Part shown: piece after piece, positions 1,740 to 64,000 of the stretch
Layout: each line of letters starts with the position of its first letter
Numbering within the stretch: the first letter of the stretch is position 1
IMG/VR virus record: IMGVR_UViG_3300031519_006853
Coordinates: 117,664 to 181,663 of that record
DNA length: 64,000 nt
Reading direction: 5' to 3' (one strand)
From: a virus
Notes under the pieces: generated by a model
The model's database searches: none
Told to the model about the DNA's origin: nothing
What the model saw: only the letters and a program-made list of their open reading frames with translations
Translations under genes and position numbers: made by a program

Positions 1740-2182
1740 TAAAGGTAAAGGTAGTATACATGAATGGGAAAGAAACTGAATATAATGTTGAGTACCCAAA
1801 AGCATATATAGCAAAAATTATGGAAAGTGAAAATGATCTAATGCTAGACCAAAAATCTGTAAAAGAAATTTATAAAGAAGATAAACTGATTGCTAAATTT
1901 ACAAATGGATTTCTAAATGAATTGGTATTAGAAAAACCCGAGCCTAAAAAGACTGCAGGTATGGGTAAGTACAAAGGTCATACGGTTCCAGCAGGTTGTG
2001 ATGTTGGTCAACATCTAATCCCAGAAGTACAAGAGATAGAAGATAAGATTAAAGCTGAAGAAGATTGGAATGAATACCAAGCAGAAATCTTACATGCTCA
2101 AAAAATACTAAAGGAAAACTTATGGGTAACAGATCATACTGGTGGTAATGTAGATTTGAATTACATTCCTAAGTCTTTATGA
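1736..2182 (+). CDS. hypothetical protein
   Basis: 148-aa ORF coupled to the previous gene by ATGA. It is the last gene of the + operon and converges on the - strand island. Confidence 0.75.
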   Translation: MIKVKVVYMNGKETEYNVEYPKAYIAKIMESENDLMLDQKSVKEIYKEDKLIAKFTNGFLNELVLEKPEPKKTAGMGKYKGHTVPAGCDVGQHLIPEVQEIEDKIKAEEDWNEYQAEILHAQKILKENLWVTDHTGGNVDLNYIPKSL

Positions 2183-2595
2183 AGAACTTTCATAAAAGGT
2201 TTAAAGTTATGTTGACCATATTCATCTCTTAAAATTTGACCTACAGCTAATGCAAAATCAGCATAAGACATTGAGTCATCTATTTTAATCATTGCTTTAT
2301 CCATTGCTTTTGCTAAAGCTTCAGACTTTTTAGATTCAAATATATCAAAAGGAGGTACATGATTTTCATTTTGAGTTTTATCATCCTCATGTTCTTCTTC
2401 CCAGTGTGGACTTTTAATATCTTTATCTCTAGTAGGATGAACATCAAATCCTTGTCTTACTGGACTATCATACGCGTTAGTATCTTTACCATCTGCTAAG
2501 TCGTCAAACATTTGTTTAAACTGGCCAACTGTACCTTTATAATGTCTAATTGTATCTTGGTCTTTTCTTGACTGATCTTCTTCCTTTGGGTCCAT
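2161..2595 (-). CDS. hypothetical protein, possible internal head protein
   Basis: 144 aa, charged, with internal HVPPFDIFES resembling the CTS-like motif. Coupled to the upstream - strand gene. Confidence 0.65.
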   Translation of the reverse strand: MDPKEEDQSRKDQDTIRHYKGTVGQFKQMFDDLADGKDTNAYDSPVRQGFDVHPTRDKDIKSPHWEEEHEDDKTQNENHVPPFDIFESKKSEALAKAMDKAMIKIDDSMSYADFALAVGQILRDEYGQHNFKPFMKVLHKDLGM

Positions 2596-3494
2596 TACTT
2601 TTTATATTTTTGCTTAAGCTGATGTATTTGTGTTTGTATCTTTAATCTTTGCAAATCCATTTTGTCAAGTGATACTCTTAATTGATAATATTGAACGGCG
2701 AAAGGATCTTCTCTATCTTGCGCAGCTCTAAATCTTTCAATGTTTTGCTGTTCTCTTCTTTTTAATCTTTCAGCTGTTTCATTTGGATTAAATTCATGTT
2801 TAGCAGCTTCGGTAACTCCATCATTACCATCCATCGTATCGTGAACTGAATTTAGATTTTTAACTGAGTCTGAGATTTTAGAATACATCCAAGCATCTAA
2901 TGTTTGACCTTGTGACATTCTATCTTTAATCATATCAGCATAATCAGCGATTCTTTCAAGATCGGTATTTGCCATTTTATTTAAACCGCCTATAGTATCT
3001 TCACCTTCAATAACTACTGATTCATTTTCCATTACATAAACATAATCTTCACCATCTTCCTTTGCTTTCTTCTTAGCCCATTTCTGAGCATCTGGCCATG
3101 ACATCCCGTTTGGAATTTGCCACTCATCAGATCCATCACGATTATATGAGAACATCCATCCACCATATCCTTTAGGTTTCTTACCATGAGATCTTACGTA
3201 TCTTTCGGTTTCAATCTTAGCGGCTTCGGTAACTGCTGATTCACTAAATAATCTCTTACCAGTGTTATCTTCTAAATGTAATAGTGCTTTAGGATACTTT
3301 TCTTGCATTACATTAAACGTTGCAGGAGCAACATCTGGTGTACTTACTGGTTCTTGGTGTATTACCTTACCATCCTGTACAACTACAATTACTGCAGGAT
3401 AACTTCCCTGCTTTGCAGCCTTGTGTACTTTACGCCTAGATGCCTCATTTACACTAAAGGATTCAAATCCTGGTATTAAATCTATACTTGCCAT
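2595..3494 (-). CDS. modular protein with CTS-like N-terminus, putative processed internal head protein
   Basis: Starts MASIDLIPGFESFSVNE|A. Internal VTE|AA occurs twice, along with other candidate xxE| sites that separate dissimilar segments. Confidence 0.65.
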   Translation of the reverse strand: MASIDLIPGFESFSVNEASRRKVHKAAKQGSYPAVIVVVQDGKVIHQEPVSTPDVAPATFNVMQEKYPKALLHLEDNTGKRLFSESAVTEAAKIETERYVRSHGKKPKGYGGWMFSYNRDGSDEWQIPNGMSWPDAQKWAKKKAKEDGEDYVYVMENESVVIEGEDTIGGLNKMANTDLERIADYADMIKDRMSQGQTLDAWMYSKISDSVKNLNSVHDTMDGNDGVTEAAKHEFNPNETAERLKRREQQNIERFRAAQDREDPFAVQYYQLRVSLDKMDLQRLKIQTQIHQLKQKYKK

Positions 3495-3495
3495 A

Positions 3496-3981
3496 TTAAA
3501 ATGTTGAATTTATAATTAGTTCTTGGATCTCACTTATTAATTGTTTCTTCTCTCTTGATCCTTTTGGATTTCTTCCGTTAATTGCACTTATGTAATTTTT
3601 GTCAATTAAATAATCTGAAATTACTGTTGCTAATACTTTTGCTCCAGATGGTTTATCTTTTCCAGCTACTTGAACCATTGCTTCATCCATAGAACCGTAG
3701 TTTTCATATGCTCTATCCATAGATTCATTTACATGCTTCTTAGCTTCTTTAAGATATGATTCAGCTGTATGATCATTATTATCATTAGTTTCATACATGT
3801 TTGCTTGTTCAGCAATATGATTTGAACATGATTCAATAATTCCTGTAACAGGAGTCATACTATATCCAGTTTCTGGTGTTGCACCACCTAATCCAAAATT
3901 CTGGATTCCTGATTGCCCAAAACCCATAACTGCAATTTCTTCATTTACTTCGAATTTATCAAAATTTGGTATCTTACTCAT
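3496..3981 (-). CDS. protein with CTS-like N-terminus, putative internal head protein
   Basis: Starts MSKIPNFDKFEVNE|E. It is the first gene after a leftward AATATATAA motif. Confidence 0.65.
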   Translation of the reverse strand: MSKIPNFDKFEVNEEIAVMGFGQSGIQNFGLGGATPETGYSMTPVTGIIESCSNHIAEQANMYETNDNNDHTAESYLKEAKKHVNESMDRAYENYGSMDEAMVQVAGKDKPSGAKVLATVISDYLIDKNYISAINGRNPKGSREKKQLISEIQELIINSTF

Positions 3982-3990: not shown

Positions 3991-4039
3991 TATATTTGTT
4001 TATATATTTGTAAACAAACATTAAGTTGTTGCATATAAA
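3991..4039. promoter_or_regulatory. Compact divergent promoter region with 8-bp hairpin
   Basis: - strand AATATATAA (4008-4000). + strand TATATTTG twice (3991-3998, 4003-4010). AAACAA-N16-TATAAA (4012-4039). Inverted repeat TTTGTTTA 3995-4002 / TAAACAAA 4011-4018. Confidence 0.65.
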
Positions 4040-4052: not shown

Positions 4053-4238
4053 ATGTCAGAATTTTTTAGAACAGCGATGGGTCGTAAATTAATTGATGGA
4101 GATATACCTAATTTGGTAAATGTCTTAGAAAGAATTGCAACTCAATTAGAAAGAAAAAACAAATTAGAGGAAAAGAAATTTATATTAGAAGAAAAAATCC
4201 AAAGACTTACAATAAAAGAATCAAATAAAAATGGCTAA
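4053..4238 (+). CDS. hypothetical coiled-coil protein
   Basis: The ATG at 4053 (MSEFFRTAMG...) is preferred over the track's TTG at 4026, which lies inside the promoter motif. Confidence 0.65.
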   Translation: MSEFFRTAMGRKLIDGDIPNLVNVLERIATQLERKNKLEEKKFILEEKIQRLTIKESNKNG

Positions 4239-4497
4239 AGGGGATATTACATATAAACAATTTATTGCTCACATGGATAAGGGTAGTAAAGTTTATATGA
4301 AAAAACCTAAGTCATGGCAAAAAGTCTGGTTTTGGTGGGAGAGCAAAAAAGACAAATGGTTTTTAAATAAAGCATTTGATAAAAGAACAGATGGAAGAGT
4401 AGAACCAGAGCCTTCAGTATGGATAACTGCAAAACAAATGGACTCTCATTTTAATTTTATGTCAAGACAAGGTTATAAATATCATATAGATGAATAA
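4231..4497 (+). CDS. hypothetical protein
   Basis: 88-aa basic/aromatic ORF overlapping both neighbours. Confidence 0.7.
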   Translation: MAKGDITYKQFIAHMDKGSKVYMKKPKSWQKVWFWWESKKDKWFLNKAFDKRTDGRVEPEPSVWITAKQMDSHFNFMSRQGYKYHIDE

Positions 4498-7703: not shown

Positions 7704-8285
7704 GTGAGGCTATTTGAAGCAAATAAAAGAAATGCAATTACCATATTTGATGTGGATGATACTCTTGTAGTTACTCGTAGTAAAATTAAAGTTCATAATC
7801 CTAAAACTGGCTTTTCAGCTGATCTTACTCCACAAGAATTTAATACATTTAAGACTAGACCAAATGATAAAATGGATTTTTCAGATTTTCAAAGTTTGGA
7901 TATTCTTAAAGCTGGTAAAATTATTGAATGGGTTTTCTCAATATTAAAAAGAACTATACAAAAAGGTAAGGCTGTTGGTATTATAACAGCAAGAGATGAT
8001 TCAAAACTTATTCAACAATTTTTGTCTCATAATGGAATTAACATAAACCCACAATACATATTTGCTATTAATGATTCTTCATTAGGATTTAAAGGTTCTA
8101 CATCAGAGAAGAAAAAGGAAGCATTTAAAAAATTCATAGATATGGGATTTAATGATTTTACATTTTTTGATGATGATGAAGATAATATTAAATTAGCTAA
8201 GTCTTTAAGTAAAGAACCTAATATTAAAATGAAAGCTAAACTAATTAAAAGCAAATGGATTCCAAAATTCGACGACTTCAAGTAA
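7704..8285 (+). CDS. HAD-superfamily phosphatase (Pnkp-phosphatase / RNA-repair-like)
   Basis: IFDVDDTL (motif I), ITAR (II), K (III), FFDDD (IV). GTG start, N-terminus MRLFE|A. Confidence 0.75.
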   Translation: MRLFEANKRNAITIFDVDDTLVVTRSKIKVHNPKTGFSADLTPQEFNTFKTRPNDKMDFSDFQSLDILKAGKIIEWVFSILKRTIQKGKAVGIITARDDSKLIQQFLSHNGININPQYIFAINDSSLGFKGSTSEKKKEAFKKFIDMGFNDFTFFDDDEDNIKLAKSLSKEPNIKMKAKLIKSKWIPKFDDFK

Positions 8286-50776: not shown

Positions 50777-51133
50777 ATGAAAACCTTTAAAGATTATCTT
50801 ACTGAAAATAATGCCTCATTAATTGATATACAAAGTATATTAAATGAATCTCATGAATTAACAGAAGAACAAGATGCTGCAATAGATTTTGCAGTAGAAA
50901 GAATTCTTGAAGCTCAGAAAGAAGGTAAAAATCTAGAAGACTGTGTTGAAGAAATAATCAATGAAGGTTTACTAGGAAGTATTTTTGGTGGTTTAACTGG
51001 TTTTGCTTTAGGAAAAACTATAGGTAAGGCTGTTGCTAAAGTATTAGGTGTTACTAAAGGTGTTCTTTATGATTTATTAACCTCACGTCTTGTAGGTGCT
51101 GCACTAGGTGCTGTTATCGGCAAGAGAATATAA
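50777..51133 (+). CDS. CTS-tagged glycine-zipper membrane protein, putative internal/ejected protein
   Basis: N-terminus MKTFKDYLTE. The C-terminal half is hydrophobic with GxxxG repeats (GLLGSIFGGLTGFALG...VGAALGAVIG). Confidence 0.55.
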   Translation: MKTFKDYLTENNASLIDIQSILNESHELTEEQDAAIDFAVERILEAQKEGKNLEDCVEEIINEGLLGSIFGGLTGFALGKTIGKAVAKVLGVTKGVLYDLLTSRLVGAALGAVIGKRI

Positions 51134-51138
51134 TTAGA

Positions 51139-51798
51139 ATGATTCATATAGGAATTGACTTTTCATTAAATAGCCCTGGTGCCTGTGTTGAAACGGACAA
51201 TGGCAAATATCACTTTATAACTTTTTTTAATTACGGAAATCGTATATGGGATGAAGAAGGTAGAAAAATACCTAAATCATTTGGTGTGCATAAAGAATTA
51301 ATGGACGACTCTGCTTTATTAGGATTTCCTTACAATAGAGATGTAACTAGTAAAGAATTTTTACCTAGAGAGAGACAAAAGCTACAAGATGCTGGAAATA
51401 TAAGTTCTCTTATGGTTAATATATTTTCTACACTATTTGAAGGAGATGAAGTTTCTGTTGCATTAGAAGGATTTTCATATGGCTCTAAAGGTAATTCATT
51501 TATAGATATAATTCAGTATAATACATTTTTAAGAAAGGAACTAATAGATAAGTACACTATTGAAAATTTATCTGTCTTTCAACCATCTCATGTTAAAAAA
51601 TTAGCTGGTAAAGGAAATGCAAACAAACATTATATGGCTAAAGCATTTCAAGATGATGTCCTTAATGATAAGAACTTAAGAATGACTAAACTTTGGAAAT
51701 GGTGCCAAGGAAAAGACTTCAGCATTAAAATTCCTAAACCTATTGATGACATAGTTGATGCCTACTTTATACTTAAAGCATTAAAGGCTAACAACTAG
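51139..51798 (+). CDS. RuvC-like Holliday junction resolvase (RNase H fold)
   Basis: IGIDFSLNSPG, VALEGFSYG, PSHVKKLAG.GNANK and DDIVDAY catalytic acidic motifs. Confidence 0.8.
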   Translation: MIHIGIDFSLNSPGACVETDNGKYHFITFFNYGNRIWDEEGRKIPKSFGVHKELMDDSALLGFPYNRDVTSKEFLPRERQKLQDAGNISSLMVNIFSTLFEGDEVSVALEGFSYGSKGNSFIDIIQYNTFLRKELIDKYTIENLSVFQPSHVKKLAGKGNANKHYMAKAFQDDVLNDKNLRMTKLWKWCQGKDFSIKIPKPIDDIVDAYFILKALKANN

Positions 51799-51826
51799 AT
51801 ACTTTTCCTACTCTGAATAGTTAAAA

Positions 51827-51857
51827 ATTATATTGCAACATGTGGAGTTTGTTTCAG
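51827..51857 (-). promoter_or_regulatory. Leftward GAAACAA-N16-TATAAT motif (antisense to the RuvC-like gene); left arm of a 12-bp inverted repeat flanking groES
   Basis: The - strand reads CTGAAACAAACTCCACATGTTGCAATATAAT. AGTTTGTTTCAG (51846-51857) is the exact reverse complement of CTGAAACAAACT (52165-52176). Confidence 0.45.
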
Positions 51858-51883
51858 CTTTACTCAAAAAAAATTAAAATAAA

Positions 51884-52168
51884 ATGATAAAACCTTTAGG
51901 AAATAGAATATTTTTAAAAAAAGATGTACAACCAGATAGAAAAGGTAATATAATTTTATTAAAACAAGATGGCATGTATGCACCTCCATACTCCGGAACA
52001 ATCATCGGTGTTGGTAGTGGTGTTAAAGATAAAGAATTTATAATTGGAGAAAAGGTTCTTTTTCATGATTTAGCTGGTACAGAAATTAAATATGATGGAG
52101 AAACTATATTTAGTCTAAGAGAAAATGATATAACTGCAATAATAGATAAAAATATAAAAATAGTCTGA
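51884..52168 (+). CDS. groES: GroES/Cpn10 co-chaperonin
   Basis: MIKPLGNRIFLK, G.IIGVG.GV, IGEKVLF and GTEIKYDG......RENDI.AII. Confidence 0.9.
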   Translation: MIKPLGNRIFLKKDVQPDRKGNIILLKQDGMYAPPYSGTIIGVGSGVKDKEFIIGEKVLFHDLAGTEIKYDGETIFSLRENDITAIIDKNIKIV

Positions 52169-52341
52169 AACAAACTGACTTAGTGAATATATAATAAACA
52201 AAGGAATCAATAAAGTATTGGTACTTTTTAAAAGGCGATAACAAGGCGAAGTAAATAGGCAATAAAAAAGAAGTTTAGGCACGAAGGCTTGTTATCATAA
52301 ATTAATAATAATAATAACAAAAACAAAAAAAGGCAATTAAC
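52168..52341 (+). promoter_or_regulatory. Promoter and structured 5' leader of the SSB gene
   Basis: AAACAA-N16-TATAAT overlapping AATATATAA, hairpin AAAGTA/TACTTT (52212-52227), 9-bp stem GATAACAAG (52237-52245) / CTTGTTATC (52288-52296), six AGGC motifs, then an A/U-rich tract to the ATG at 52342. Confidence 0.55.
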
Positions 52342-53265
52342 ATGGCAAATGAATTCGACATTTTTAACGTAAGTGTAAAAGATTTAGACACTGGTGAAAG
52401 ACCATCTACCGCAGGTAGTGATCTTTATTCACCTAAACCAGATCAAGGACAGGACGGAACTTACCGTTCTTTAATTAGGTTTCTACCTAATGCTAAAAAC
52501 CCAAGAAAACCATTTGAAAGAAAGTATGTCTACTGGTTAGAAGACAGAGAAGGGAACGGCTTTTTCGCTGATTCACCATCAACAGTTGGAGAAAAAGATC
52601 CTATACAGGATATGTTTTTCAAACTAAGAAACTCTGAATCTGCTGTAGACAAAAAGATGTCAGAAGGTTTAAAGCGTAGAGAAGTATTTTATGCATTGGT
52701 ACAAATCATGAAAGATCCTCAGAATAGGGATTTAGAAGGACAAGTTAAAATCATGAAGTTTGGTTATAAAATCAAAACTAAAATTGATGAAGAACTCAAT
52801 CCTCAATTTGATGAACCTACTCAAGTATTTGATCCATTTGAAGGAAAGAATTTTGAATTGGTAATTTCAAAGAAAGGTGGCTTTCCTAATTATGATTCAA
52901 GTAAATTCCACGGAAATAAATCTCCAATGACAATTAATGGTGAAGCAGTATCTAACGATGATGCAAGCCGTAAATCAATATTGGATTTACTAAAGGATGC
53001 TCCAGATTTAACAACATGGGGTTATAAAGCATGGGACGATGTAGTAAGAGGAAAGGTAATGAATGTATTATCTCAATTCCATTCTCCAGGCGATTCAATA
53101 CAAAATATCACAAGATCAAAACCAGCACCAGTAAATACTCAAGTTACTGAAGCTGCTGCAACTAAAGTAACAACTGAAACAAAGGCAACTCCAAAGGCTG
53201 AACCTGCAAAAGGTGAAGAAAAGGCTGATGACTTTGATGATTTCATTAATGGTTTAGATCTTTAA
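52342..53265 (+). CDS. gp32: single-stranded DNA-binding protein (T4 gp32-like)
   Basis: IRFLP, VKIMKFGYKIKTKI, FDPFEG.NF.L...K.G..PNYD.SKF and an acidic C-terminal tail (DDFDDFINGLDL). Confidence 0.9.
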   Translation: MANEFDIFNVSVKDLDTGERPSTAGSDLYSPKPDQGQDGTYRSLIRFLPNAKNPRKPFERKYVYWLEDREGNGFFADSPSTVGEKDPIQDMFFKLRNSESAVDKKMSEGLKRREVFYALVQIMKDPQNRDLEGQVKIMKFGYKIKTKIDEELNPQFDEPTQVFDPFEGKNFELVISKKGGFPNYDSSKFHGNKSPMTINGEAVSNDDASRKSILDLLKDAPDLTTWGYKAWDDVVRGKVMNVLSQFHSPGDSIQNITRSKPAPVNTQVTEAAATKVTTETKATPKAEPAKGEEKADDFDDFINGLDL

Positions 53266-53270
53266 TAAGT

Positions 53271-54344
53271 ATGGCAACGGAAGTAATAATATCTTCTGAA
53301 ATGAAAGCTCGGATCATTGATAAGGTGGTCCGAGTTCTTCATACTAACCATACTCATACAGAGAAAAGAAGAATACTGGAGAGTAAGGGTAGGTTAAACT
53401 TTGCGTGTCCTTATTGTGGAGATTCAACTGATAATCTTAGAAAGAAGAGAGGTAACTTATATTGGAATGATTTATATTTTCATTGTTATAATTGTTCAGC
53501 TCATGCATCATTAGATGTTTTCTTGGCTGAGCATAACCAAAACTTTGAGGGTGATGATAGAGTTGATGTAATTAATTATATTAAAGAAAACCGTAAACAT
53601 TTCTCATTAGGTGAAAGTTTAGATTTTTATCTTTTTGATAAAGCCAAAGAACTAGCATTAACTTTTGATGAATTAGCATTAGGCTTTAATGTATACCCAA
53701 TTAATACTTTAACATATCAAGCATATCCATATTTAAAAAGTAGATTATTACATCATAAAACTGAACGATTTGGTTTTGATCCAAGACGTAGAGAATTATA
53801 TGTTTTTAATTTAACACCCGAAGGTAAAATAATAGGATTCCAAACCAGAGACTTAGGTGGGAGTGGTGGTCCTAAATATAAAACATGGAACATAGAAAGA
53901 ATATATGATAGATTAAAATTACCAATAAAGGTTGCTGAAGAAGAGCTAGATAACCTAAACAAAATATCAATGTTGTTTGGTATCTTAACTGTTGATATGT
54001 CAAGAGACTTTTCTATATTTGAAGGTCCTATAGATGCTATGTTTATGAATAACACAATAGGATTAACTGGTGTTAAAAAACAAATAATAGAATTTAATGA
54101 AATACCTACAGCAAGATATTTCTTTGATAATGATATGGAAGGTAAAACTAGAATGATTGAAAAATTAAAAGGTGGCCAAACTGTATTTATGTGGGATAAG
54201 TTTTTAAAAGACTTTGATATTCCATCAAGAAAAGTAAAAGATTTAAATGATTTAGTAAAATGGGAGTATACTAATCGATCTGGGTGTTTGAGTGACTTAG
54301 ATAAATATTTTACAAATAACTCGTTAGATATTATTTTTATATGA
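53271..54344 (+). CDS. DNA primase (T4 gp61-like)
   Basis: N-terminal Zn finger CPYCGDS...FHCYNC, plus TOPRIM motifs IFEGPIDAMF, FFDND and KDLND. Confidence 0.9.
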   Translation: MATEVIISSEMKARIIDKVVRVLHTNHTHTEKRRILESKGRLNFACPYCGDSTDNLRKKRGNLYWNDLYFHCYNCSAHASLDVFLAEHNQNFEGDDRVDVINYIKENRKHFSLGESLDFYLFDKAKELALTFDELALGFNVYPINTLTYQAYPYLKSRLLHHKTERFGFDPRRRELYVFNLTPEGKIIGFQTRDLGGSGGPKYKTWNIERIYDRLKLPIKVAEEELDNLNKISMLFGILTVDMSRDFSIFEGPIDAMFMNNTIGLTGVKKQIIEFNEIPTARYFFDNDMEGKTRMIEKLKGGQTVFMWDKFLKDFDIPSRKVKDLNDLVKWEYTNRSGCLSDLDKYFTNNSLDIIFI

Positions 54345-54562
54345 TGAGTTTTAAAAATTATAGCAATTTCGTGAGTGAAGAGGAAGATAACTTTTATGAT
54401 GATTTAGAAACAAGTAAAAAAAGACTTAAGTTTTTTGCTACATTTAATAAATCTGAATTAAACCAAGTAAAGACTAGTTTTTCTATACCAGCTCCAAAAA
54501 AGAGGTTTCAGCCTAAAGTAAAGGGTTTTAAAAAGATTAATAATGATAAAGGTATATTTTAA
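54341..54562 (+). CDS. small hypothetical protein with CTS-like N-terminus
   Basis: 73 aa starting MMSFKNYSNFVSE|E. Confidence 0.6.
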   Translation: MMSFKNYSNFVSEEEDNFYDDLETSKKRLKFFATFNKSELNQVKTSFSIPAPKKRFQPKVKGFKKINNDKGIF

Positions 54563-55011
54563 TGGAGTATAACGATTCCGCTACTGGTGATGCTAATGAA
54601 GAATTAGCTGTTAGATTAGCAAAAGATAGAAATGATTGGAAAGTAAAGATAAGTCATTTAATTAGTTTACTAAAAGAAGTCCGTAATTTATCGGAGTGTC
54701 AAGTAAATATGCTATCATATAGACAAATCTTATTAGATAAGATTACTGATTTTAAAACAACAAAACATAAAAGGCAAGCTGCATATGATAGGTATTATAA
54801 AATTAAGTATAGAGAGTATTCTGTAGAGTATGATATTAAATTAACAAGCGGTGAAAAAGTTGCTTTCATTAAAGCTGACTTGTCTCATTTAAGAGCACAA
54901 ATGGAAATGCTGCAATCTCATATGGATTATTATCAAGAATGCATTAAGACTTGTGATAACTTAGCGTTTGCAATAAGAAATAGGATTAACCTAGACGATA
55001 AAGAATACTAA
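54562..55011 (+). CDS. uvsY: recombination mediator UvsY-like
   Basis: 149-aa helical protein immediately upstream of UvsW. EK.AFI.AD...L...IKTCDNLAFAIRN.I matches the UvsY ending. Confidence 0.65.
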   Translation: MEYNDSATGDANEELAVRLAKDRNDWKVKISHLISLLKEVRNLSECQVNMLSYRQILLDKITDFKTTKHKRQAAYDRYYKIKYREYSVEYDIKLTSGEKVAFIKADLSHLRAQMEMLQSHMDYYQECIKTCDNLAFAIRNRINLDDKEY

Positions 55012-56516
55012 TGGAATTATCACTATCCGAAAATAAAAAGTTTTTAGTTATAGATGCATGTACTGAATTAGAGTATGAGCAGCTAAAGAGTAGTTTGACT
55101 AAAAAAATTGAAGGATGGAGATTTCACCCACTAGTTAAAAAGAAAGTATGGGATGGTAATGTATCTTTTGTAAAAAGAAATAAAATCCCTGCAGGACTAT
55201 GGAAAGAAATTTTAGATATATGTAAAGATTATGATTTCCCAGTTACTCTAAATAATATAACTGATATATTTGATACTGAAATTAAAGAAGATAAATTTAG
55301 AGAATGGGTTACTGAAATTTTTAAAAAACAACCAGATTTTAAACCTAGGGAATATCAAATAGATGCAGCATTTAAAATATTAAAGTATAGAAGATGTTTA
55401 GCCGAATTAGCAACATCAGCCGGTAAAACTTTAATATCATTTATGGTGGTTGCTTATCTTATGGATAAATTAAATAAGAAAAAAATCTTAATGATTGTAC
55501 CTAATGTAAATCTAGTCTTACAAGCAACCGGTGATTTTGATGAGTATAATAAATGTGGAGTTCCATTAAAGACTCAGCAAATATATGCAGGGGTAAAAAT
55601 AAGAAAGAGTTCTAATTTAGTTATAGGTACATACCAATCCTTAGTTAAAAAGGATGAAGAATACTTCAGTCAATTTGATGCTGTTTTTGTAGATGAAACT
55701 CATAAAGCAAAAGCTAATTCAATACAAAAAATTATGGATAAATGTTGGCATTGTGATTTTAGGTTTGGTTTAAGTGGAACTATTCCTAAAAAAGGAACTG
55801 TTAATAGATTAAGCTTAATGTCTGCAATGGGACCTTTGGTTACTCAAGTAAAGGCTAGTCAATTACAACAAGAAGGTTTTATAGCTAGCTGTAAGGTTAT
55901 GCAACTCCACATGGATTATGCAACCGATGCTCAAAAAGAATCATTTTCTTTTTTATCCAAAAACCCACAAGATAGACAAAGGTTATTTGGATTAGAGCAA
56001 AACTTTATAAACCAAAGCGAAAAGAGATTAGACTTTGTTTGCCAAGTAATTAAAAAGTCTACATCAAATTCATTAGTACTATTTCATAAAATAGCATACG
56101 GTGAAAAGATCTATAATAAACTAAGACACATAACAGATAAAAAGGTATATTATGTGGATGGTTCAGTTAATGTAGATATAAGAGAAGAATTTAAAAGCCG
56201 AATGGAAAAGAATGATGATGTTATTATTGTAGCATCTTATGGTACTTTTTCAACTGGTATTTCAATTAAAAATATACATAATATCTTTTTTACCGAAAGT
56301 TTTAAATCTGAAGTAATTATCAGACAAAGTATTGGTAGGGGATTAAGAAAGCATGTATCAAAGGATGTTGTAAAAATCTATGATTTTATAGATGATTTTA
56401 GATATAAAACCGAAGACCATGATTGGGTTAATTATATCTACCGCCACGGTATTGCACGGCGAACAATATATAAAGAAGAAAAGTTTCCATTCGAAGTTCA
56501 GAACATAAGATTCTAA
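55011..56516 (+). CDS. uvsW: SF2 DNA helicase UvsW
   Basis: PREYQ, ELATSAGKT (Walker A), VDETH (Walker B), GLSGT, SYGTFSTGISIKNIHN and QSIGRGLR. Confidence 0.93.
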   Translation: MELSLSENKKFLVIDACTELEYEQLKSSLTKKIEGWRFHPLVKKKVWDGNVSFVKRNKIPAGLWKEILDICKDYDFPVTLNNITDIFDTEIKEDKFREWVTEIFKKQPDFKPREYQIDAAFKILKYRRCLAELATSAGKTLISFMVVAYLMDKLNKKKILMIVPNVNLVLQATGDFDEYNKCGVPLKTQQIYAGVKIRKSSNLVIGTYQSLVKKDEEYFSQFDAVFVDETHKAKANSIQKIMDKCWHCDFRFGLSGTIPKKGTVNRLSLMSAMGPLVTQVKASQLQQEGFIASCKVMQLHMDYATDAQKESFSFLSKNPQDRQRLFGLEQNFINQSEKRLDFVCQVIKKSTSNSLVLFHKIAYGEKIYNKLRHITDKKVYYVDGSVNVDIREEFKSRMEKNDDVIIVASYGTFSTGISIKNIHNIFFTESFKSEVIIRQSIGRGLRKHVSKDVVKIYDFIDDFRYKTEDHDWVNYIYRHGIARRTIYKEEKFPFEVQNIRF

Positions 56517-56571: not shown

Positions 56572-58305
56572 ATGAAGTCAATCAAAAAGTTTTCTGCGAT
56601 GTCTGCTAAAGATCAACCGATCACAGAGTCAGCAAAAGTAACAAAAGAAGCTGTTGATGAATTGATCAAAAAGATTGGTTTTGACAGTATAGAAGAGTTA
56701 AAAAAGGAGAAGGATCTTCTTGCAAAACTCGAAGCAATGTCTAAGACATTTGCAAAAAGTAATGATATATCTGAGGATGAAATCGAAGAAGATAGAGCTG
56801 AAGATATCGAAGATGAAATGAAAGTCAAAGGCAAAGCTAAATCTTTAGAAGATTCCGAAGATAAAGGCAGTGATGAAGAAGTAGTTGCTGATGTTGAAGA
56901 AATAGAAGAACTATCTGGAAAGGCTAAAGAAATAGAAGATGAGGTTAATACTATCGGTGCTACTAAATCTTTAGAAGATAAAGAAGGTGAAGAAGTTTCT
57001 GATGATCAAGAAATTACTAAAGAAGTTCCAGCTGAAGCTGATGAAGTTAAAGATGAGGATGGCGTGGATGTTGCTTCTGAAGAAAAAGAAACTCCTAAAG
57101 CTACAAGAAGAATTATGGCTTTTGAAGATTTCATTAAAGAAAAAGAAGAAACTATTAATAAAAACATTTCTTATCATGATGATGATGAAGAGCCAGAAGA
57201 TTATGCTGTTCCTGTAGCAGCCTCTGCTGATCCTCTTGCTGAAGGTGCTGAAGCTAAAGGTAAAGAAGATGAGAAAGAAGGTGATGAGTTAGAAGATAAA
57301 GGAGATAAGAAAGTTGATTCTGAAGATGATAAAGAAAAAGCAGACCATTATAAAGGAGCTGTTAAATCTGATGATAAACAAATTGATGCTTTAAAGAAAG
57401 ATGCTAAGTTTGATAAAGAAGAAGAGGAAGATGCTGAAAAGAATGAATCTACTATAATGGATTTTGCAAGTTTTGTAAATGAAGCTTATGACAAAGTTGT
57501 ATTCGGTGGAAACAAAGGAGATAAGTCTAAAACTAAAGAAGATGAAGAAGACTTTGAAGATGAAGATAAAACTGACGAAAAGTTTGATGATGTAGTTCTT
57601 GGAGGTAATAAAGGCGATAAGTCTAAAACTAAAGAAGGAGAAGAAGATTACGAAGATGAAGATAAAAAGGATGAAGCATATGATGTAGTAACTTTAGGTG
57701 GTAATAAAGGCGATAAGTCTAAAACCAAAAAAGGTGAAGAAGATTATGAAGATGATAAAGATGAATCAGTAGATGAAACTGTTGGTCAAGTAATAACTAA
57801 AGTTGAAGGTGATGAAATTGCTGATGAAGTAGCAGGTGATGACGGTATAGCTATTCCTGCAATGAAAGGTGATGGTTCTGAAACTGCTGCTGGGATTGCT
57901 GGTGATATAATGGATAAAGGTAAAGTTAAAAACTTATCTACATTGTCTGGTAAATTAGTTACACCAGATCAAAAGGTTACTGAAGTAATTCCTGATTCTG
58001 CAAACGATGTATCTGAAGATGGTATTGAAATTCCACTAGTTAAAGAAGAGGAAGAAGTATTAGCTGATGATTCTATTGCAGAAAAATTCAGAAAAATTGC
58101 TACCAATAAATTAGGTAAAGTAAATGAAGCAGATATTACTTCTGATGATCAGTTTAAAGAATATGCAATGAAAATGTTAAAAGATGCATTCGGTGCTGAT
58201 TTTGATGAAGCTAAAGCTACTGAAACTGCTGATGGTTTAATTTCTAAGTATGATGGAGATTACGGTGCAATGGTTGGAGCTTTACAGTCTACTATGGGAT
58301 CATAA
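56572..58305 (+). CDS. highly acidic low-complexity protein with internal repeats; putative prohead core/scaffold or internal protein
   Basis: 577 aa, D/E/K-rich, with internal CTS-like segments RIMAFEDFIKE and IMDFASFVNE|A. Preceded by GATATATAA. Confidence 0.55.
   Translation: MKSIKKFSAMSAKDQPITESAKVTKEAVDELIKKIGFDSIEELKKEKDLLAKLEAMSKTFAKSNDISEDEIEEDRAEDIEDEMKVKGKAKSLEDSEDKGSDEEVVADVEEIEELSGKAKEIEDEVNTIGATKSLEDKEGEEVSDDQEITKEVPAEADEVKDEDGVDVASEEKETPKATRRIMAFEDFIKEKEETINKNISYHDDDEEPEDYAVPVAASADPLAEGAEAKGKEDEKEGDELEDKGDKKVDSEDDKEKADHYKGAVKSDDKQIDALKKDAKFDKEEEEDAEKNESTIMDFASFVNEAYDKVVFGGNKGDKSKTKEDEEDFEDEDKTDEKFDDVVLGGNKGDKSKTKEGEEDYEDEDKKDEAYDVVTLGGNKGDKSKTKKGEEDYEDDKDESVDETVGQVITKVEGDEIADEVAGDDGIAIPAMKGDGSETAAGIAGDIMDKGKVKNLSTLSGKLVTPDQKVTEVIPDSANDVSEDGIEIPLVKEEEEVLADDSIAEKFRKIATNKLGKVNEADITSDDQFKEYAMKMLKDAFGADFDEAKATETADGLISKYDGDYGAMVGALQSTMGS
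57481..57768 (+). repeat. Three tandem 96-bp (32-aa) repeats
   Basis: EAYDKVVFGGNKGDKSKTKEDEEDFEDEDKTD / EKFDDVVLGGNKGDKSKTKEGEEDYEDEDKKD / EAYDVVTLGGNKGDKSKTKKGEEDYEDDKDES start at 57481, 57577 and 57673. Confidence 0.9.
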
Positions 58306-58321: not shown

Positions 58322-59593
58322 ATGAAACATGTAAAATTGTTTGAACAATGGCTGACTGACAAAAGTCAGCCATTTTTGTTTGAAGGTGGTGCTGCTGGTC
58401 ATATGCAGCATCCATTTGATAATAAGGATTTAACCTTTGGAGATTTCAAAGCAATGGTTGATGCTGGACTTAGAGGCCAATTAAACTTTGAAGAAGATCC
58501 TACAGAAAAAACTGATGGGCAAAACTTATTCGTAACTATTCAAGATGGTAAAGTAAAATTTGCTAGAAATAAAGGTCAAATGGCAAACCCATTAGATCTT
58601 AATGGTATTATTGATATGTTTACTGGTCATGCATCAAAGTTAGTAGAAGATACTTATATTTTTGCTGCTAGAGATTTAGATAAGCTATTAAGAAAGCTTT
58701 CACCAGCAGATCAAGAAAAGTATTTTAAGAATGGAAAAGATTTTATGAATATGGAATTAATCTATTCATTGAATCCAAATGTTATTCATTATGATACCGA
58801 TGTTATACAATTTCATGGAATAAAAGAAACAGATGGTAAAGGTAATATCATAGGTACAAATAATAAACCTGCAAAAGAAATAACAAGTATACTCCAAAAG
58901 GTAAAATCTGATATTGGTAAAACATTTAAAATTATACCACCTAAAGTAATTCAATTACAAAGAGATTTAGATTTTACTGCAAATAAGAAAAAGTTTATTA
59001 ATCAAGTTAATGCTTTAGAAAAAAGGTACGGATTAAATGACGGTGATGAAGTTTCAAGATATCATGAAATGTGGTGGAGAGAATTAATAGATAAAGAATT
59101 TCCAACATTAACTCAAGATATTAAAGAAGGTTTACTTAGAAGATGGGCATACGGTGATAAGAAGAGTTTAAACATGAGATCTTTAGCTAAACAAGTTGGT
59201 CCTAAAGAAGCTGCACTGGTTAAGAAGTTTGATAAAGAGGATGTTGCTAAAAAGTATAAAGAAAACATTAGACCATTTGAAGATCTGTTTTTAGAGCTAG
59301 GTTCTATCATTATGAAAAATGCTTCTAACTTCTTAGCTGCTAATCCATCAGGTGAAGCACAAAGACTAAGAAAAGAAATTGAAACTCAAGCAAGTAAGAT
59401 TAAAAAGACAGGTGGTGTAGAACAAATTAAAAAGGTTGAAGCTGAGCTTGCAAGATTAAGTCGTATTGGTGGTATAGAATCAATATTTCCAACTGAAGGT
59501 ATTGTATTTAAATATAAAGGTAAGATCTATAAGCTAACTGGTACCTTTGCTGCAATTAATCAGCTAATGGGTATAATTAAATACGGCAACTAG
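58322..59593 (+). CDS. RNA-ligase-fold (covalent nucleotidyltransferase) protein with CTS-like N-terminus
   Basis: MKHVKLFEQWL...FLFE|GG, TEKTDGQN (motif I KxDG), FARNK (Ia), NMELIY (III), EGIVFK (IV), IYKLTG (V). Confidence 0.6.
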   Translation: MKHVKLFEQWLTDKSQPFLFEGGAAGHMQHPFDNKDLTFGDFKAMVDAGLRGQLNFEEDPTEKTDGQNLFVTIQDGKVKFARNKGQMANPLDLNGIIDMFTGHASKLVEDTYIFAARDLDKLLRKLSPADQEKYFKNGKDFMNMELIYSLNPNVIHYDTDVIQFHGIKETDGKGNIIGTNNKPAKEITSILQKVKSDIGKTFKIIPPKVIQLQRDLDFTANKKKFINQVNALEKRYGLNDGDEVSRYHEMWWRELIDKEFPTLTQDIKEGLLRRWAYGDKKSLNMRSLAKQVGPKEAALVKKFDKEDVAKKYKENIRPFEDLFLELGSIIMKNASNFLAANPSGEAQRLRKEIETQASKIKKTGGVEQIKKVEAELARLSRIGGIESIFPTEGIVFKYKGKIYKLTGTFAAINQLMGIIKYGN

Positions 59594-59682: not shown

Positions 59683-60039
59683 ATGGAACACTTACACACT
59701 TATGAATCCCTTAATGAATCTAAGAAATTAGACACTATTAAAAAACAAGTTTTGGATTTTGCTGAAAAGAACGGCAAATCTAAATGGGGAGACTTACAGA
59801 AATTTATTTTAACTCTTAAGGGCTTAGATCCAAATGATAGAGATAATCGTGGGCAGTTCTCATCTTATTTTTCTGGTGGGTCTTCTTGGCAATCAAAAGG
59901 AAAGGATACTAAATTAGGTAGAGATGCAAATTCTCATGGTTTATTAATGAGGCCTACTAAACAAGATCCAAGATATTTAGAAAAAGATGGTAAAGATTAT
60001 ATTGTAAAGGTATGGGATGGTAAATCTAAATTAGCATAA
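59683..60039 (+). CDS. small protein with CTS-like N-terminus
   Basis: 118 aa starting MEHLHTYESLNE|S. Confidence 0.65.
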   Translation: MEHLHTYESLNESKKLDTIKKQVLDFAEKNGKSKWGDLQKFILTLKGLDPNDRDNRGQFSSYFSGGSSWQSKGKDTKLGRDANSHGLLMRPTKQDPRYLEKDGKDYIVKVWDGKSKLA

Positions 60040-60040: not shown

Positions 60041-60367
60041 ATGAAAAACTTTAATGAATTTGTAAATGAAGCTATCAGCTATAAAGATAGAGATGGTAAA
60101 TCATTTAAAATAAAAGGTATGAATTTTGTTTATACTGAGCAAGGCGGTAGATTTTATGGAACATATTTATATGACGTAGCAAAAACTGCAAATGTTCAAT
60201 GGACATCAAAGATATCTATAGATGAAACTAATAAATTATTAAAGTCATTAGGGGTTAAGTTAGAGCTACCAAATAGATATGATGATAGAGATCTGGATAA
60301 GATATGTAAAGAAGTATCAAAAAAGAGTATAGTATGCGACCACGGTGATTATATGGATGTATCATAA
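60041..60367 (+). CDS. small protein with CTS-like N-terminus
   Basis: 108 aa starting MKNFNEFVNE|A, a close match to T4 MKTYQEFIAE. Confidence 0.65.
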   Translation: MKNFNEFVNEAISYKDRDGKSFKIKGMNFVYTEQGGRFYGTYLYDVAKTANVQWTSKISIDETNKLLKSLGVKLELPNRYDDRDLDKICKEVSKKSIVCDHGDYMDVS

Positions 60368-60489: not shown

Positions 60490-63291
60490 ATGAAAGAGTT
60501 AACAAACATATATAAAGAAGCAGGGCAACAGTTCGTAGATGATCTATTTAAAGATTACCTATTAGTGACTGAAAAATTATCAGGATCATCATTCTCATTT
60601 GAAAGACATGGTGATGAATTGAAATTTTTTAAAGGCAGCAACAAGCAGCCTATTAATTTAGTGGATAGAACACTAATGATGTATTATGAACCTGCAATTC
60701 AATACATACTTTCACAAACAGTAGATAATTTAGAAGACTTACCAGAATATTGGAGATTTTGTTTTCAATACTTTGTTAATAATCAACCTGGTGCAATTGA
60801 ATATGATAATATGCCAAAGAATGGTTTAATACTTACTCATATTCAAATTAGAAATGCAAAAGGTAAAATTGCTAAAGTTATAGAAGATCCTAGAGTATTA
60901 AGAGACTGGGCATCTGCGTTTCAAGTAACTCCGCTCATTCCAATATTTAGTGGATATTTAAAAGAAGAACAAAAAAGAAAGATTAGAGAATTTCTTTCAA
61001 CTCCAAAAGAAGATCAGTTAGAAGTATTTGGTACAAGTTCATTTGCTAAATATTTAATTGATTCTTTAAATCCAACGATTAAGCAAACAACATTACAGAA
61101 TGATTTAAATAAACCTATTGATTCTATTATCTTTAAGTTTTTTAAACAAGGAACTAATCAAGTCTTTGCTGCTAAAATGATTGATCCTTATACTGAAGCT
61201 TTAATGAAAGAAAAAGAACCTATAGATCTAAGAAGAGCTCCTGCTGATATTAATGAAATACTTTTATTAGATATTTTAGCTTTTATAGAAGAAAGAGGAT
61301 TAAGAGGTGGCGAACTATTAACTTCAATACCAAGTGAAAGGTATTTAGAATTAATGTCAAATCTATTTAATGACTATATTGCAAAAAGAGGAGTTGATCT
61401 ACAAAAAATAGATATTGAAAAAGCTGAATTTGCAAAAGGGCCAGAATTTAATCTAAATTTAGATTTAATTAAAAATAATAGAACAAGAGAAATATTACAA
61501 AAATCTCCAAAGTTACAAAACTTATATAAAATAATGTTAGGTTCTTTAAGAAAGAAAAGAAACCCTAATCGAATAGGCGCAGTAATGACAGCATCAGTAA
61601 TAGAAGATTTTAATAAAATGGTTTCTAAAGTAAGTGATACTATTAATAAAGAAACATCAAATGAATTTAAAACTTTTGGTGACTATTTAGATAATAAGCT
61701 TACTGAAGAAATAAATCATAAAGATTTAGAAGAATTGATTGTTGAAGAAAAAGTATTAAACTATAATAAATTTATTAACTTAGCTAAAGTAGATATATTA
61801 AATGAAGCTAAGAAGATATCTAAAAAAAGTATAGAGGAATTTTGGAAAAATGGATACAAGAAATATTCTAAGTCAACTGATGTGACAGGGGTATCTTCAA
61901 GAAAGGGAGATACTGGTGAAGTACTTAGAGCTAACTTTGGACCTAACGACGGAACAGCAGAAAAATCTATAAAAGATTTTTTACTTAAGCATGCTGGGAT
62001 TAAACCAAATACTTATAAAATAGAAAGTTTACCAGTAGGTGTTATTTCATCTGACTACGCTGCTTATAAAATAATAATACAAAGAGGTGTTAAAAATAAG
62101 TTAGGACAAGATTATGGAATTAGTGATTTCTTTATTATAACAAATAGATATAAGATTTCTAAAAAGACTGGAGAGGCTTCAGTTATAGGTAGAAAGGATT
62201 TAACCCCAGATAGACTAGGTGTAGCTAAACCTAACGGTATTGAATATCATAATGCGGCTGCGCTATATGCTAAAGTAGAGCCTAAAATTAAAGCTTTAAA
62301 ATATCCTGATAATTATAAAGAGTTTATTTTACAATCAACTCGCGAAGTTATGGATAGTAGCAATAGTGGAAAGTTTACTGATTTTAAAAAATATGCAAAT
62401 GCACCAACACAAATCTTAAATTATAAAATTACAGAATCTTTGTTTGATGGTATAGATCAATTATCAATTCAAAACTTTCAAAATGATTACGGTGAAATAT
62501 TAGGTGGCTTTATGTTATTTAATTTATTACAAGATACTGGTAAAGGTATAAGATATCCAATTAATTCCAACGAAAAGCTAGTAGATTTTTATTTTGATAA
62601 CTATGCAATATCATCAAAGGCAGGTAGGGGCGGTACTCCTAGTGGTGATACTATTATTCAAAGAATATCTTCAATGTACTTAGACGATAAATTAGATTTT
62701 AGTACAATACAAGAACAAGACTTTTATAATTATGTAATAAAAGTATGGACTAATCCAACAAAGCTAGCAAGAAGTGGTATTTATAACACTGTAATGAATT
62801 TATGCAGTGTAAACATTACAGATAAAGCTAATTCAGGTTATTGGTATTTAATAGCCGAATCTAAACTTCAGCCTAATTTATTAACACAAGATTCAGTAGT
62901 GTCTTTCTTAGATGAATTACATTTAGATGAAAATAAGTTTAAAGAATTCTTAAATACATTATGGACAAAGTCAGGTATGGCTTGGAACGATAAAAAATTA
63001 AACGCAGCATATGATGGCTACATTGCATTAGGTAGAAATAGAATAGGTGTAGTATTTTATCCTTTAATGGTTGAAGCTACTAAAATACTTAATGAAAAAT
63101 TCACAAAGCAATTAACACAGTATTCACAATTAGTAACTGATGTTAAACAATTATACTTAGATGTTTTAGTTAAGAAAGGATTGTTTCAATTTAAAACAGT
63201 TCCATTTTCTAAAGCTACATTTGTATTTGAACAAAAAGGAAGTATAGCCAATCCTTTTAATGCTAATATGGGGATAAGAATACTAAAGTAA
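60490..63291 (+). CDS. 933-aa multidomain protein: degenerate ligase-fold N-terminus plus putative PD-(D/E)xK-like C-terminal domain
   Basis: VTEKLSGSSF motif-I-like Lys, internal CTS-like FKTFGDYLDNKLTE|E and ILNE|A, and C-terminal YGEILG...NEKLVDF.....ISSK. Confidence 0.5.
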   Translation: MKELTNIYKEAGQQFVDDLFKDYLLVTEKLSGSSFSFERHGDELKFFKGSNKQPINLVDRTLMMYYEPAIQYILSQTVDNLEDLPEYWRFCFQYFVNNQPGAIEYDNMPKNGLILTHIQIRNAKGKIAKVIEDPRVLRDWASAFQVTPLIPIFSGYLKEEQKRKIREFLSTPKEDQLEVFGTSSFAKYLIDSLNPTIKQTTLQNDLNKPIDSIIFKFFKQGTNQVFAAKMIDPYTEALMKEKEPIDLRRAPADINEILLLDILAFIEERGLRGGELLTSIPSERYLELMSNLFNDYIAKRGVDLQKIDIEKAEFAKGPEFNLNLDLIKNNRTREILQKSPKLQNLYKIMLGSLRKKRNPNRIGAVMTASVIEDFNKMVSKVSDTINKETSNEFKTFGDYLDNKLTEEINHKDLEELIVEEKVLNYNKFINLAKVDILNEAKKISKKSIEEFWKNGYKKYSKSTDVTGVSSRKGDTGEVLRANFGPNDGTAEKSIKDFLLKHAGIKPNTYKIESLPVGVISSDYAAYKIIIQRGVKNKLGQDYGISDFFIITNRYKISKKTGEASVIGRKDLTPDRLGVAKPNGIEYHNAAALYAKVEPKIKALKYPDNYKEFILQSTREVMDSSNSGKFTDFKKYANAPTQILNYKITESLFDGIDQLSIQNFQNDYGEILGGFMLFNLLQDTGKGIRYPINSNEKLVDFYFDNYAISSKAGRGGTPSGDTIIQRISSMYLDDKLDFSTIQEQDFYNYVIKVWTNPTKLARSGIYNTVMNLCSVNITDKANSGYWYLIAESKLQPNLLTQDSVVSFLDELHLDENKFKEFLNTLWTKSGMAWNDKKLNAAYDGYIALGRNRIGVVFYPLMVEATKILNEKFTKQLTQYSQLVTDVKQLYLDVLVKKGLFQFKTVPFSKATFVFEQKGSIANPFNANMGIRILK

Positions 63292-63302
63292 ATATATAAG
63301 GT

Positions 63303-64000
63303 ATGGATAATTTAAATGATTTAAATAATTTCTTAAATGAAAAGAGAGTAACTGTTAAGAGAAGGTACACTGAAGCGTATCCTGCTAAGAATGTATCAAC
63401 GGCTGCGAGGGTAAGAAGTACTATTTTAGATTCTATTGCCGATGGTCATATTACTGAAGATGAGATGACGAGAATACTTTCTGAACTTAAAGCTCATAAG
63501 AGATGGTTAAGTAGAAATAAAGGTTTATTTAATATTAGTGAAGATCAAGCAGGAATTAAAACTTTTTCGCTTTCTCCTTATGGATTAAGAGTAAAGAATA
63601 AAACCACAGTACTTAATGAAGCTTTAAAAGTACCTCATGAAGAAAAGGGTAAAAAACCAGTAAATATGTTTGTTGGTAGATTTCAACCTTTTACACTAGG
63701 ACATGTTAAAGTATTTGAAAAAATGTATAAAGAAAACGGTTTACCTGTTGTAGTTTATATGGTAAGAGGCAGTAAGCCTGATCCAGAGAAAAGACCATTT
63801 GATGAAGATATGCAACAAGCAATGTTTGCTAAAATGAAAAAGCAATATCCATTTTTGGAAGCAAGCTTTGTAGTTCCTAACGGTGCAATTGATACAATGT
63901 TTGCAGCAGCAAGACCAGCATACGAACCTATGATGTGGGGTTATGGTACTGATAGAAAGAAAGATTATGGTGCTATGATTGATAAACAATCATACCGAGA
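63303..64000 (+). CDS. cytidylyltransferase-family / NMN adenylyltransferase-like nucleotidyltransferase (5' part; runs off the window; absent from ORF track)
   Basis: ATG 63303 opens MDNLNDLNNFLNE|K..., later VLNE|ALK and FVGRFQPFTLGH ((T/H)xGH), RPF, GTDR. Open to the window end. Confidence 0.8.
   Translation, partial: MDNLNDLNNFLNEKRVTVKRRYTEAYPAKNVSTAARVRSTILDSIADGHITEDEMTRILSELKAHKRWLSRNKGLFNISEDQAGIKTFSLSPYGLRVKNKTTVLNEALKVPHEEKGKKPVNMFVGRFQPFTLGHVKVFEKMYKENGLPVVVYMVRGSKPDPEKRPFDEDMQQAMFAKMKKQYPFLEASFVVPNGAIDTMFAAARPAYEPMMWGYGTDRKKDYGAMIDKQSYR

Follow-up and report, generated by a model that had tools for sequence, protein, structure and literature searches.

The question raised by this locus is whether a single phage marks a series of unrelated proteins with a common N-terminal peptide of the kind that sends T4 proteins into the head. 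The window, by which we mean the whole stretch of 64,000 nucleotides (nt) analysed, is the last 64 kb of a 181,663-bp IMG/VR virus record (IMGVR_UViG_3300031519_006853; CheckV completeness 65%; GC content ~31%), which is an uncultured marine T4-like phage. Positions refer to the window unless they are given as genome positions. An initial annotation of the window had described about 12 proteins sharing a short motif similar to the T4 capsid-targeting sequence (CTS), mostly at the N-terminus, and interpreted them as a payload loaded into the head for injection. All nine of its N-terminal strings are present at the starts of their open reading frames (ORFs), the start codon at 7704 being GTG.

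We found seven to nine proteins in the window that seem to carry a T4-type capsid-targeting propeptide of 10-19 residues, and the whole 182-kb record appears to encode about 20 of them. This N-terminal tag is very probably a real, selected and portable unit, and the comparative evidence for it is stronger than the N-terminal statistics. From the about 12 members initially listed, seven were accepted, together with the ligase-like protein at 58322 under a caveat; the protein at 54341 is doubtful, and those at 7704 and of 144 and 933 amino acids (aa) fail.

Conservation and exchange of the tags

In the T4 CTS, residues 4 and 7 serve targeting and residues 8 and 10 serve processing, and Asp at position 10 stops cutting but not targeting (PMC9026906). 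These four functional positions (aromatic 4 and 7, aliphatic 8, Glu 10) are found with exact spacing in the proteins starting at 50777 and 60041, and the same residue order, with 2-9 extra residues, is found in those starting at 59683, 63303, 56572, 3981(-) and 3494(-). The logo of 19 tagged clusters reads Lys-x-[Ile/Leu]-Lys-x-Phe-Glu-Glu-Phe-[Leu/Val/Ile]-Asn-Glu, followed by Ala/Asn/Lys/Ser/Gly, with Phe/Tyr in 92% at P7 and in 86% at P4, Leu/Val/Ile at P3, and the P1 Glu most frequently at residue 13. Some of these preferences, for Lys at P12, Ile/Leu at P10 and Asn at P2, were not part of the search pattern. The hydrophobic residues are spaced like one face of a helix, and the end of the tag fits the aliphatic-x-Glu rule of gp21-type proteases. 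Four IMG/VR scans gave 325, 149, 22 and 130 related stretches, and across hundreds of related contigs the tags keep P7, P4, P3 and P1, while P2, the tag length and the linker vary freely.

One case of constraint is the 118-aa protein at 50777..51133 (+), with the tag at residues 1-10 (nt 50777-50806; Phe4, Tyr7, Leu8, Glu10) and a score of 26 against the T4 template described below. Residues 1-4, 6-8 and 10 are invariant among 46 distinct DNA sequences of orthologues while residues 9 and 11-15 vary freely, and codons 3, 6, 7, 8 and 10 vary synonymously while their residues stay fixed. The tag peptide was one of the six search patterns behind this set, so a slight bias is possible. The initially suggested likeness to the T4 CTS thus holds at the four functional positions, which in this family are under purifying selection at the protein level. 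A second site, Leu-Leu-Asn-Glu, is fixed across orthologues at residues 21-24, and the C-terminus is glycine-zipper-like, with a weak Gly-zipper Pfam match.

Tags are also exchanged between proteins: one body may bear different tags, one tag may stand on unrelated bodies, and the exchange occurs precisely at the Glu. Such swaps were found on the bodies of the proteins at 60041, 63303 and 58322. The 108-aa protein at 60041..60367 (+) has its tag at residues 1-10 (nt 60041-60070; Phe4, Phe7, Val8, Glu10; score 25). In locus L056 and two other loci the same body follows another tag, of 9 residues, with the junction exactly at Glu|Ala, and this L056 tag type is also found on an unrelated 108-aa protein at genome position 95833. 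The nucleotidyltransferase at 63303..63998 (+), with the (H/T)xGH motif, is clipped by the contig end and reaches 440 aa in relatives; its tag spans residues 1-13 (nt 63303-63341). It matches Pfam CTP_transf_like (1.5e-7), and its nearest NCBIfam families are NMN adenylyltransferases, all under cut-off. At least 7 tag types of 10-16 residues occur in this family, each ending in Glu right before the conserved body, except in one relative with a divergent leader.

The 423-aa RNA-ligase-like protein at 58322..59593 (+) has a tag-like leader at residues 1-13 (nt 58322-58360). In its alignment, a linker that has insertions and deletions separates the leader from a body ~70% identical across clades. 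In the AlphaFold model, residues 1-29 lie outside the fold with a predicted local distance difference test (pLDDT) score below 50. The best fold matches are Trl1/Rnl1/Rnl3 RNA ligases (E 2.7e-3), and a Lys-x-Asp-Gly motif is conserved. From its sequence we accept it as a probable tagged protein, with the caveat that P1 is Asp. Among the kinds of effectors first proposed, the phosphatase, at 7704, was rejected.

On the minus strand, modules as well as tags are shuffled. The 299-aa protein at 2595..3494 (-) consists of a tag (residues 1-17, nt 3494-3444) and four modules, with aliphatic-x-Glu sites at the joints, ending at residues 90, 163 and 229 (nt ~3225, 3006 and 2808). Relatives have the tag with modules C and D (151 aa), with A and D (159 aa) or with D (81-85 aa), and module A or C is also found behind other tags (L172, L178, L185) or within larger proteins (741-1247 aa). 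The breaks in the relatives inspected (L165, L170, L176, L178) fall at a Glu or a few residues from it. The neighbouring 161-aa protein at 3496..3981 (-) has its tag at residues 1-14 (nt 3981-3940); in its orthologues the tag length differs by 2-3 residues, and Asn-Glu always stands before the conserved body.

The 577-aa protein at 56572..58305 (+) has an isoelectric point (pI) of 4.2 and an N-terminal tag of residues 1-19 (nt 56572-56628). It contains two internal tag-like units, each beginning with Met, at residues 182-190 (nt 57115-57141) and 296-304 (nt 57457-57483), with 2 internal pattern matches for 0.5 expected. From their sequence, these units look as if they were formed by gene fusion. 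Conservation among its orthologues covers the tag and the C-terminal 60 residues, while the middle differs widely. We also observed in this protein (57500-57700, +) three tandem acidic repeats of ~35 residues with Gly-Gly-Asn-Lys-Gly-Asp-Lys. The 118-aa basic protein at 59683..60039 (+) ends its tag (residues 1-12, nt 59683-59718) in Leu-Asn-Glu. The tag is kept in ~8 orthologues, all close, and the gene seems to be accessory since it was found in a minority of the related loci; we accept this protein with moderate confidence, on thinner evidence than the others.

These proteins were initially described as unrelated to each other, and indeed the tagged bodies, without their first 25 residues, had no mutual BLASTP match at E 1e-3. 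Pfam and PHROGs gave no family for most of them. Their predicted mature forms have 60 to 558 residues and pI from 4.2 to 9.8. Relatives share a conserved four-gene backbone, into which small tagged ORFs of 104-159 aa are inserted at differing places; T4 internal protein (IP) loci likewise gain and lose small tagged ORFs within a conserved backbone.

The N-terminal statistics depend on the pattern used. The loose pattern of the initial annotation matched 12 of 183 N-termini where shuffles gave 4.8 (~2.4-fold) and internal windows 4.9, which is a weak excess over background. Because this pattern is loose, we adopted a template fixed beforehand, the T4 CTS core (sequence from PMC8442874) scored with BLOSUM62 against the first ~17 residues of each ORF of at least 60 aa, and here the excess is clearer. 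Seven of the 203 ORFs of this genome scored 20 or more, compared with expectations of 0.49 from residue shuffles (maximum of 4 in 500), 0.59 from internal windows, 0.6 from the N-termini of spurious ORFs and 0 from internal Met contexts. As a control we used two 50-kb stretches of Staphylococcus phage K (GC ~30%), which has no S77 protease, its own being of another family. There, 2 of 178 ORFs scored at least 20, and 4 of 178 scored at least 15, against 16 of 203 in this genome. The enrichment is therefore real yet smaller than the shuffles imply, part of the signal being common to the N-termini of AT-rich phages in general, and a lone match is weak evidence.

Other searches were less informative. 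Motif discovery by expectation-maximization over the N-termini outside the window found nothing but the generic Lys at residue 2 and performed no better than on shuffles. Simple patterns of 3-4 residues were hardly enriched at N-termini, and a profile from nine repeats of the prohead protease (see below) was too narrow, retrieving only the protein at 54341 and a scaffold-like protein. In the window, pattern matches were found in 1 of 29 tail and baseplate ORFs, and that one looks spurious, against 5 of 30 ORFs in the rest. Outside the window there are at least 11 further tagged N-termini, clustering at 72.9-78 kb and 92.5-97.3 kb, so the family is bigger than initially reported.

Prohead protease, scaffold and promoter-like boxes

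A gp21-type protease is encoded in the same record, outside the window. The Peptidase_S77 domain (PF03420; genome 18245-18595; E 6e-16; 55 bits for a cut-off of 27) lies within the first ~180 residues of a 573-aa ORF (genome 18182-19903), which adjoins a gp23-like capsid protein gene (genome 20011-21939). After the S77 domain, this ORF has ~10 tandem 14-residue repeats whose first half, Tyr-Ser-Glu-Tyr-[Ile/Leu/Val]-[Ala/Gly]-Glu, matches the tags and the T4 CTS alike, and there are further Asn-Glu and Ser-Glu sites beyond the repeats. The counterpart in Tenacibaculum phage PTm1, beside the PTm1 capsid gene, is annotated as 'prohead core scaffolding protein and protease'. We also observed 78 orthologues of the protease-repeat fusion (locus L001), of 564-610 aa, each with 4 or 5 matches to a strict form of the repeat pattern.

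The capsid gene is followed by that of a 356-aa coiled-coil protein rich in Lys, Ala and Glu, which has at its start the best match to the T4 CTS in the genome and near its C-terminus a second copy of the tag. This start is kept in nearly all of the ~25 distinct orthologue N-termini listed, among lengths of 278-444 aa. By its sequence this protein appears to be the main scaffold component. The head regions of LR756500 and PTm1 each yielded no more than one tag-like N-terminus.

The nearest capsid proteins are from an uncultured 462-kb phage (51% identity) and Prevotella Lak phages (~37-40%). The closest cultured phages reach only ~30% in this protein, with 30-31% for the Tenacibaculum jumbo phages PTm1, PTm5 and pT24. 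A marine host among the Bacteroidota is likely for relatives of this phage. Nucleotide megablast against the phage collection gave no match.

Several of these genes share a promoter-like box. The TATATAAA box is found 22-40 nt before the start codon of the portal, protease and scaffold-like genes and of several large virion genes, and it also heads the transcription units starting at 3981(-), 50777, 56572 and 60490. It lies 24 nt upstream of 50777, 26 nt upstream of 56572 and 25 nt upstream of 3981(-), where it occupies 3999-4006 of the minus strand; a TATATATA box lies 24 nt upstream of 59683. The initial annotation took the motif ahead of several tagged genes as late-type. We dropped the TATATAAA box as a late promoter, since it also precedes replication-type genes, and regard it as promoter-like only. 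A different upstream motif, AAAACGGAA, precedes ~10 genes genome-wide, including the 433-aa ORF at 6329 and none that is tagged; it probably marks a promoter class other than that of the TATATAAA box.

Doubtful and rejected members, and neighbouring genes

The 73-aa basic protein at 54341..54562 (+) is a doubtful member. It has a strong tag-like N-terminus (residues 1-13), with a T4-template score of 27 and the best match to the protease-repeat profile, and it is conserved in 31 orthologues. On the other hand, its ORF overlaps the primase stop, lies between the primase and the UvsY/helicase genes and has no TATATAAA box, and the equivalent small ORF in four distant loci has aliphatic residues and Asp/Asn/His at the key positions.

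Three other candidates were rejected. The 193-aa protein at 7704..8285 (+), similar to HAD/polynucleotide kinase-phosphatases (phrog_415 at 4e-11), begins with the GTG codon mentioned above, resembles the motif over 5 residues only and has no TATATAAA box; its N-terminus is part of the fold, since Asp-x-Asp-x-Thr sits at residues 17-21. The 144-aa protein at 2161..2595 (-), the final gene of the minus-strand operon, has no tag: there is no tag-type aliphatic-x-Glu site, and the N-termini of its orthologues are conserved and untagged. In the 933-aa protein at 60490..63291 (+), an N-terminal Rnl2-type RNA ligase domain of ~240 residues precedes a large extension, and neither Pfam nor PHROGs gave a match. 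According to the model, helices at residues 2-19 and a strand at 23-29 belong to the fold, so the N-terminus was discarded as a tag. The model of residues 1-400 has a pLDDT of 82, with T4 RNA ligase 2 as the top fold match (E 1e-6, probability 1.0). Glu28-Lys29, in the strand 23-29, is invariant in 16 orthologues, and Lys29 is consistent with the motif I lysine of a putative Rnl2-type ligase. Internal motif copies had initially been described in the 144-, 577- and 933-aa proteins. They stand for the 577-aa protein, whereas the 933-aa protein is at chance (2 for 2.5 expected) and the 144-aa protein has 0 matches to the initial pattern. For the two ligase-like proteins, BLASTP against T4 Rnl1 and Rnl2 was not significant and only the folds matched.

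The Rnl2-fold gene at 60490 has the ligase-like gene at 58322 on its upstream side and the nucleotidyltransferase gene at 63303 on its downstream side, in what looks like a conserved RNA-repair-like gene backbone. At 4231-4497 (+) there is an 88-aa protein with a conserved N-terminus (12 distinct orthologues) that has 7 of the 9 T4 CTS core positions and ends in His, not Glu. The resemblance could be chance, or this protein could be targeted and left uncut.

In the window, a long block for tail and baseplate spans 9371-50752 and one for replication spans 52342-56516, the latter encoding a gp32-like single-stranded DNA-binding protein, a primase, a UvsY-like protein and a helicase; accessory clusters lie at both ends. 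From 50198 to 56516 the order is tail-tube-like gene, tagged 118-aa gene, RuvC-like resolvase, GroES-like gene, gp32-like gene, primase, 73-aa ORF, UvsY-like gene and helicase, that is, a T4-like replication/recombination module immediately beside the tail genes. The 94-aa GroES-type co-chaperonin (51884-52168, +; NCBIfam E 1e-13, under curated cut-offs) may be a counterpart of T4 gp31, which is required for capsid protein folding.

Possible role of the tags in the head

We consider it reasonably probable that the tag serves to load proteins on the scaffold core and that the S77 protease removes it, because of the T4 analogy and the reiteration of the motif in the protease-scaffold fusion and the scaffold-like protein. 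During prohead assembly, the tag would dock its protein on a core made of this fusion, with the motif ~10 times in tandem, and of the coiled-coil protein with its N-terminal tag. The S77 protease would next cut after the tag Glu, so that the tag departs and the cargo remains in the head, and multi-module proteins such as that of 299 aa would be cut at every joint. Part of the cargo would then enter the host along with the DNA. To ejection of at least some cargo we give slightly less than an even chance, by the precedents of T4 and phage P1.

Some observations weigh against this mechanism. P2 is mostly Asn in the tags, against Ala/Gly/Ser in the protease repeats. It was not possible to place the capsid maturation site, T4 gp23 Glu65 being aligned to a Glu-free stretch. 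The leader of the ligase-like protein at 58322 has Asp at P1 in this clade, with Glu in other clades, and the cargo is not uniformly basic like the T4 IPs. The AT-rich phage K has two high-scoring N-termini of its own, so a lone match proves little, and the TATATAAA box, which tagged genes have in common with the head genes, is found ahead of a topoisomerase-like and an SbcC-like gene as well.

Three other explanations were weighed. In a genome of 31% GC, rich in Lys, Asn, Phe, Tyr, Ile and Glu, a loose Met-Lys pattern may be matched by chance, and such an artefact of composition would agree with the 12 matches for about 5 expected, the two high scorers of phage K, the Lys-2 signal that was all the unsupervised search gave, and the three listed members that are chance matches. 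It does not agree with the 7 high scores against 0-0.6 in four null models, with protein-level purifying selection exactly at the T4 positions in the 50777 family, or with tag swaps at the Glu junction and conserved Lys at P12, Ile/Leu at P10 and Asn at P2, all outside the search pattern. For the family as a whole this artefact is largely refuted, and we find it very improbable; for the proteins at 7704 and of 144 and 933 aa it is the best reading. The tag could also be real and portable yet serve another purpose, such as a different assembly or compartment, a timed proteolysis unrelated to the head, or the translation or folding of late accessory proteins. The GroES-like gene shows that this phage manages folding, and the protein at 54341 bears the motif within the replication gene block. 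Such a purpose seems quite unlikely, given that the motif equals the T4 CTS at four functional positions, ends in the cutting rule of a protease family that the phage encodes and is repeated in the protease-scaffold and scaffold-like proteins, while 28 of the 29 tail and baseplate ORFs of the window are without it and the remaining one is likely spurious.

Entry into the prohead need not mean delivery, since tagged proteins could be core or scaffold parts, degraded and expelled at maturation as are T4 gp22, gp67 and gp68, and there would then be no payload. T4 core proteins start with N-terminal peptides of this same kind, the 577-aa protein shares its extreme acidity with the gp67 tail and has many candidate sites, and the multi-site modular proteins could merely be chopped up. 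The 423-aa ligase-like protein, the nucleotidyltransferase and the 108-aa protein argue against such a fate: they are folded enzymes or small conserved domains in which internal sites are few, and in this they resemble the T4 IPs and Alt, which undergo one cut and remain in the head (PMC8442874). We therefore hold degradation of the whole set to be improbable, and the 577-aa protein may by analogy be a degraded core protein like gp67. In the T4 record, gp24, Alt, gp67, gp68, gp22, gp21 and Inh start with 6-10 residues that close with Leu/Ile-x-Glu. To read the ejectome from the motif, as first proposed, was an overreach, since peptides of the same kind head T4 scaffold and core proteins that are degraded and not ejected.

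Returning to loading and removal by the S77 protease, the closest precedent is the capsid targeting of T4 (PMC8442874, PMC9026906, PMC5694885). Both phages have an N-terminal peptide of 10-20 residues with aromatics three apart, an aliphatic residue, any residue and Glu, borne by unrelated proteins from variable loci, and both encode a gp21-family protease. Whereas T4 has a handful of carriers, the 182-kb record here has ~20. The tags are degenerate and variable in length, with the Glu mostly at residue 13 and P2 usually Asn, and the protease, known here from its sequence, continues into a scaffold-like region with tandem copies of the motif. Among the predicted cargo are an RNA-ligase-like enzyme, a nucleotidyltransferase and multi-module proteins with cut-type joints, and with its spread of pI and length this cargo does not match IPI-III in the narrow sense (small, highly basic).

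In phiKZ, 201phi2-1 and SPN3US, long propeptides are found on ejection and inner-body proteins, with gp21-like cuts at Ser/Ala-x-Glu (PMC5694885, PMC9026906). Such giants share with our phage the large size and a diverged protease of the gp21 type; the processing of many head proteins after Glu, at several sites in a propeptide, and autoprocessing at the protease C-terminus would also be common to them. They differ in that their propeptides are mostly longer than 100 residues without a common short tag and that P3 is Ser/Ala there and aliphatic here; the window phage is also of another lineage, its capsid being near those of the 462-kb phage, Lak and Tenacibaculum phages. In phage P1, an N-terminal signal of less than 30 residues suffices to load a foreign protein into the head with DarB (PMC9024508). 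A short N-terminal loading signal would be common to both systems, and the phage P1 cargo protects the incoming DNA, but the Dar proteins have no consensus tag, phage P1 has no gp21-type processing rule, and its loading order depends on other Dar proteins. Our literature search, which did not cover subscription journals, gave no paper on CTS-type tags in T4-like phages that are uncultured marine ones or of Bacteroidota type.

By analogy, the mechanism would be the known one of T4, probably extended to more and new cargo. The tag idea itself is not new. What would be new in relation to T4 is the number of carriers, the degenerate tags of variable length, the enzymes and modular proteins as cargo and the motif-repeating protease-scaffold fusion. 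A bolder version, which we think rather unlikely, is that tags and Glu joints form a plug-and-play system in which any gene product can be loaded by acquiring a leader of 10-13 residues or inserting at a joint. An RNA-repair and nucleotide kit would then be pre-loaded, with the Rnl1/Trl1-like ligase, targeted but uncut owing to its Asp at P1, and the NMNAT-like nucleotidyltransferase, and it could act against host anticodon nucleases or NAD-depleting defences before phage gene expression.

If the tags act as in T4, the proteins that enter the head would be readable from sequence in an abundant group of uncultured marine phages, with more than 300 related contigs for one marker gene. The list of virion cargo would gain enzymes not known as such and proteins with exchangeable modules, and the tags would represent a natural set of alternative loading signals for protein delivery by phage capsids. 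The internal-protein strategy of T4 would then be old and widely expanded, and no speciality of the T-even phages.

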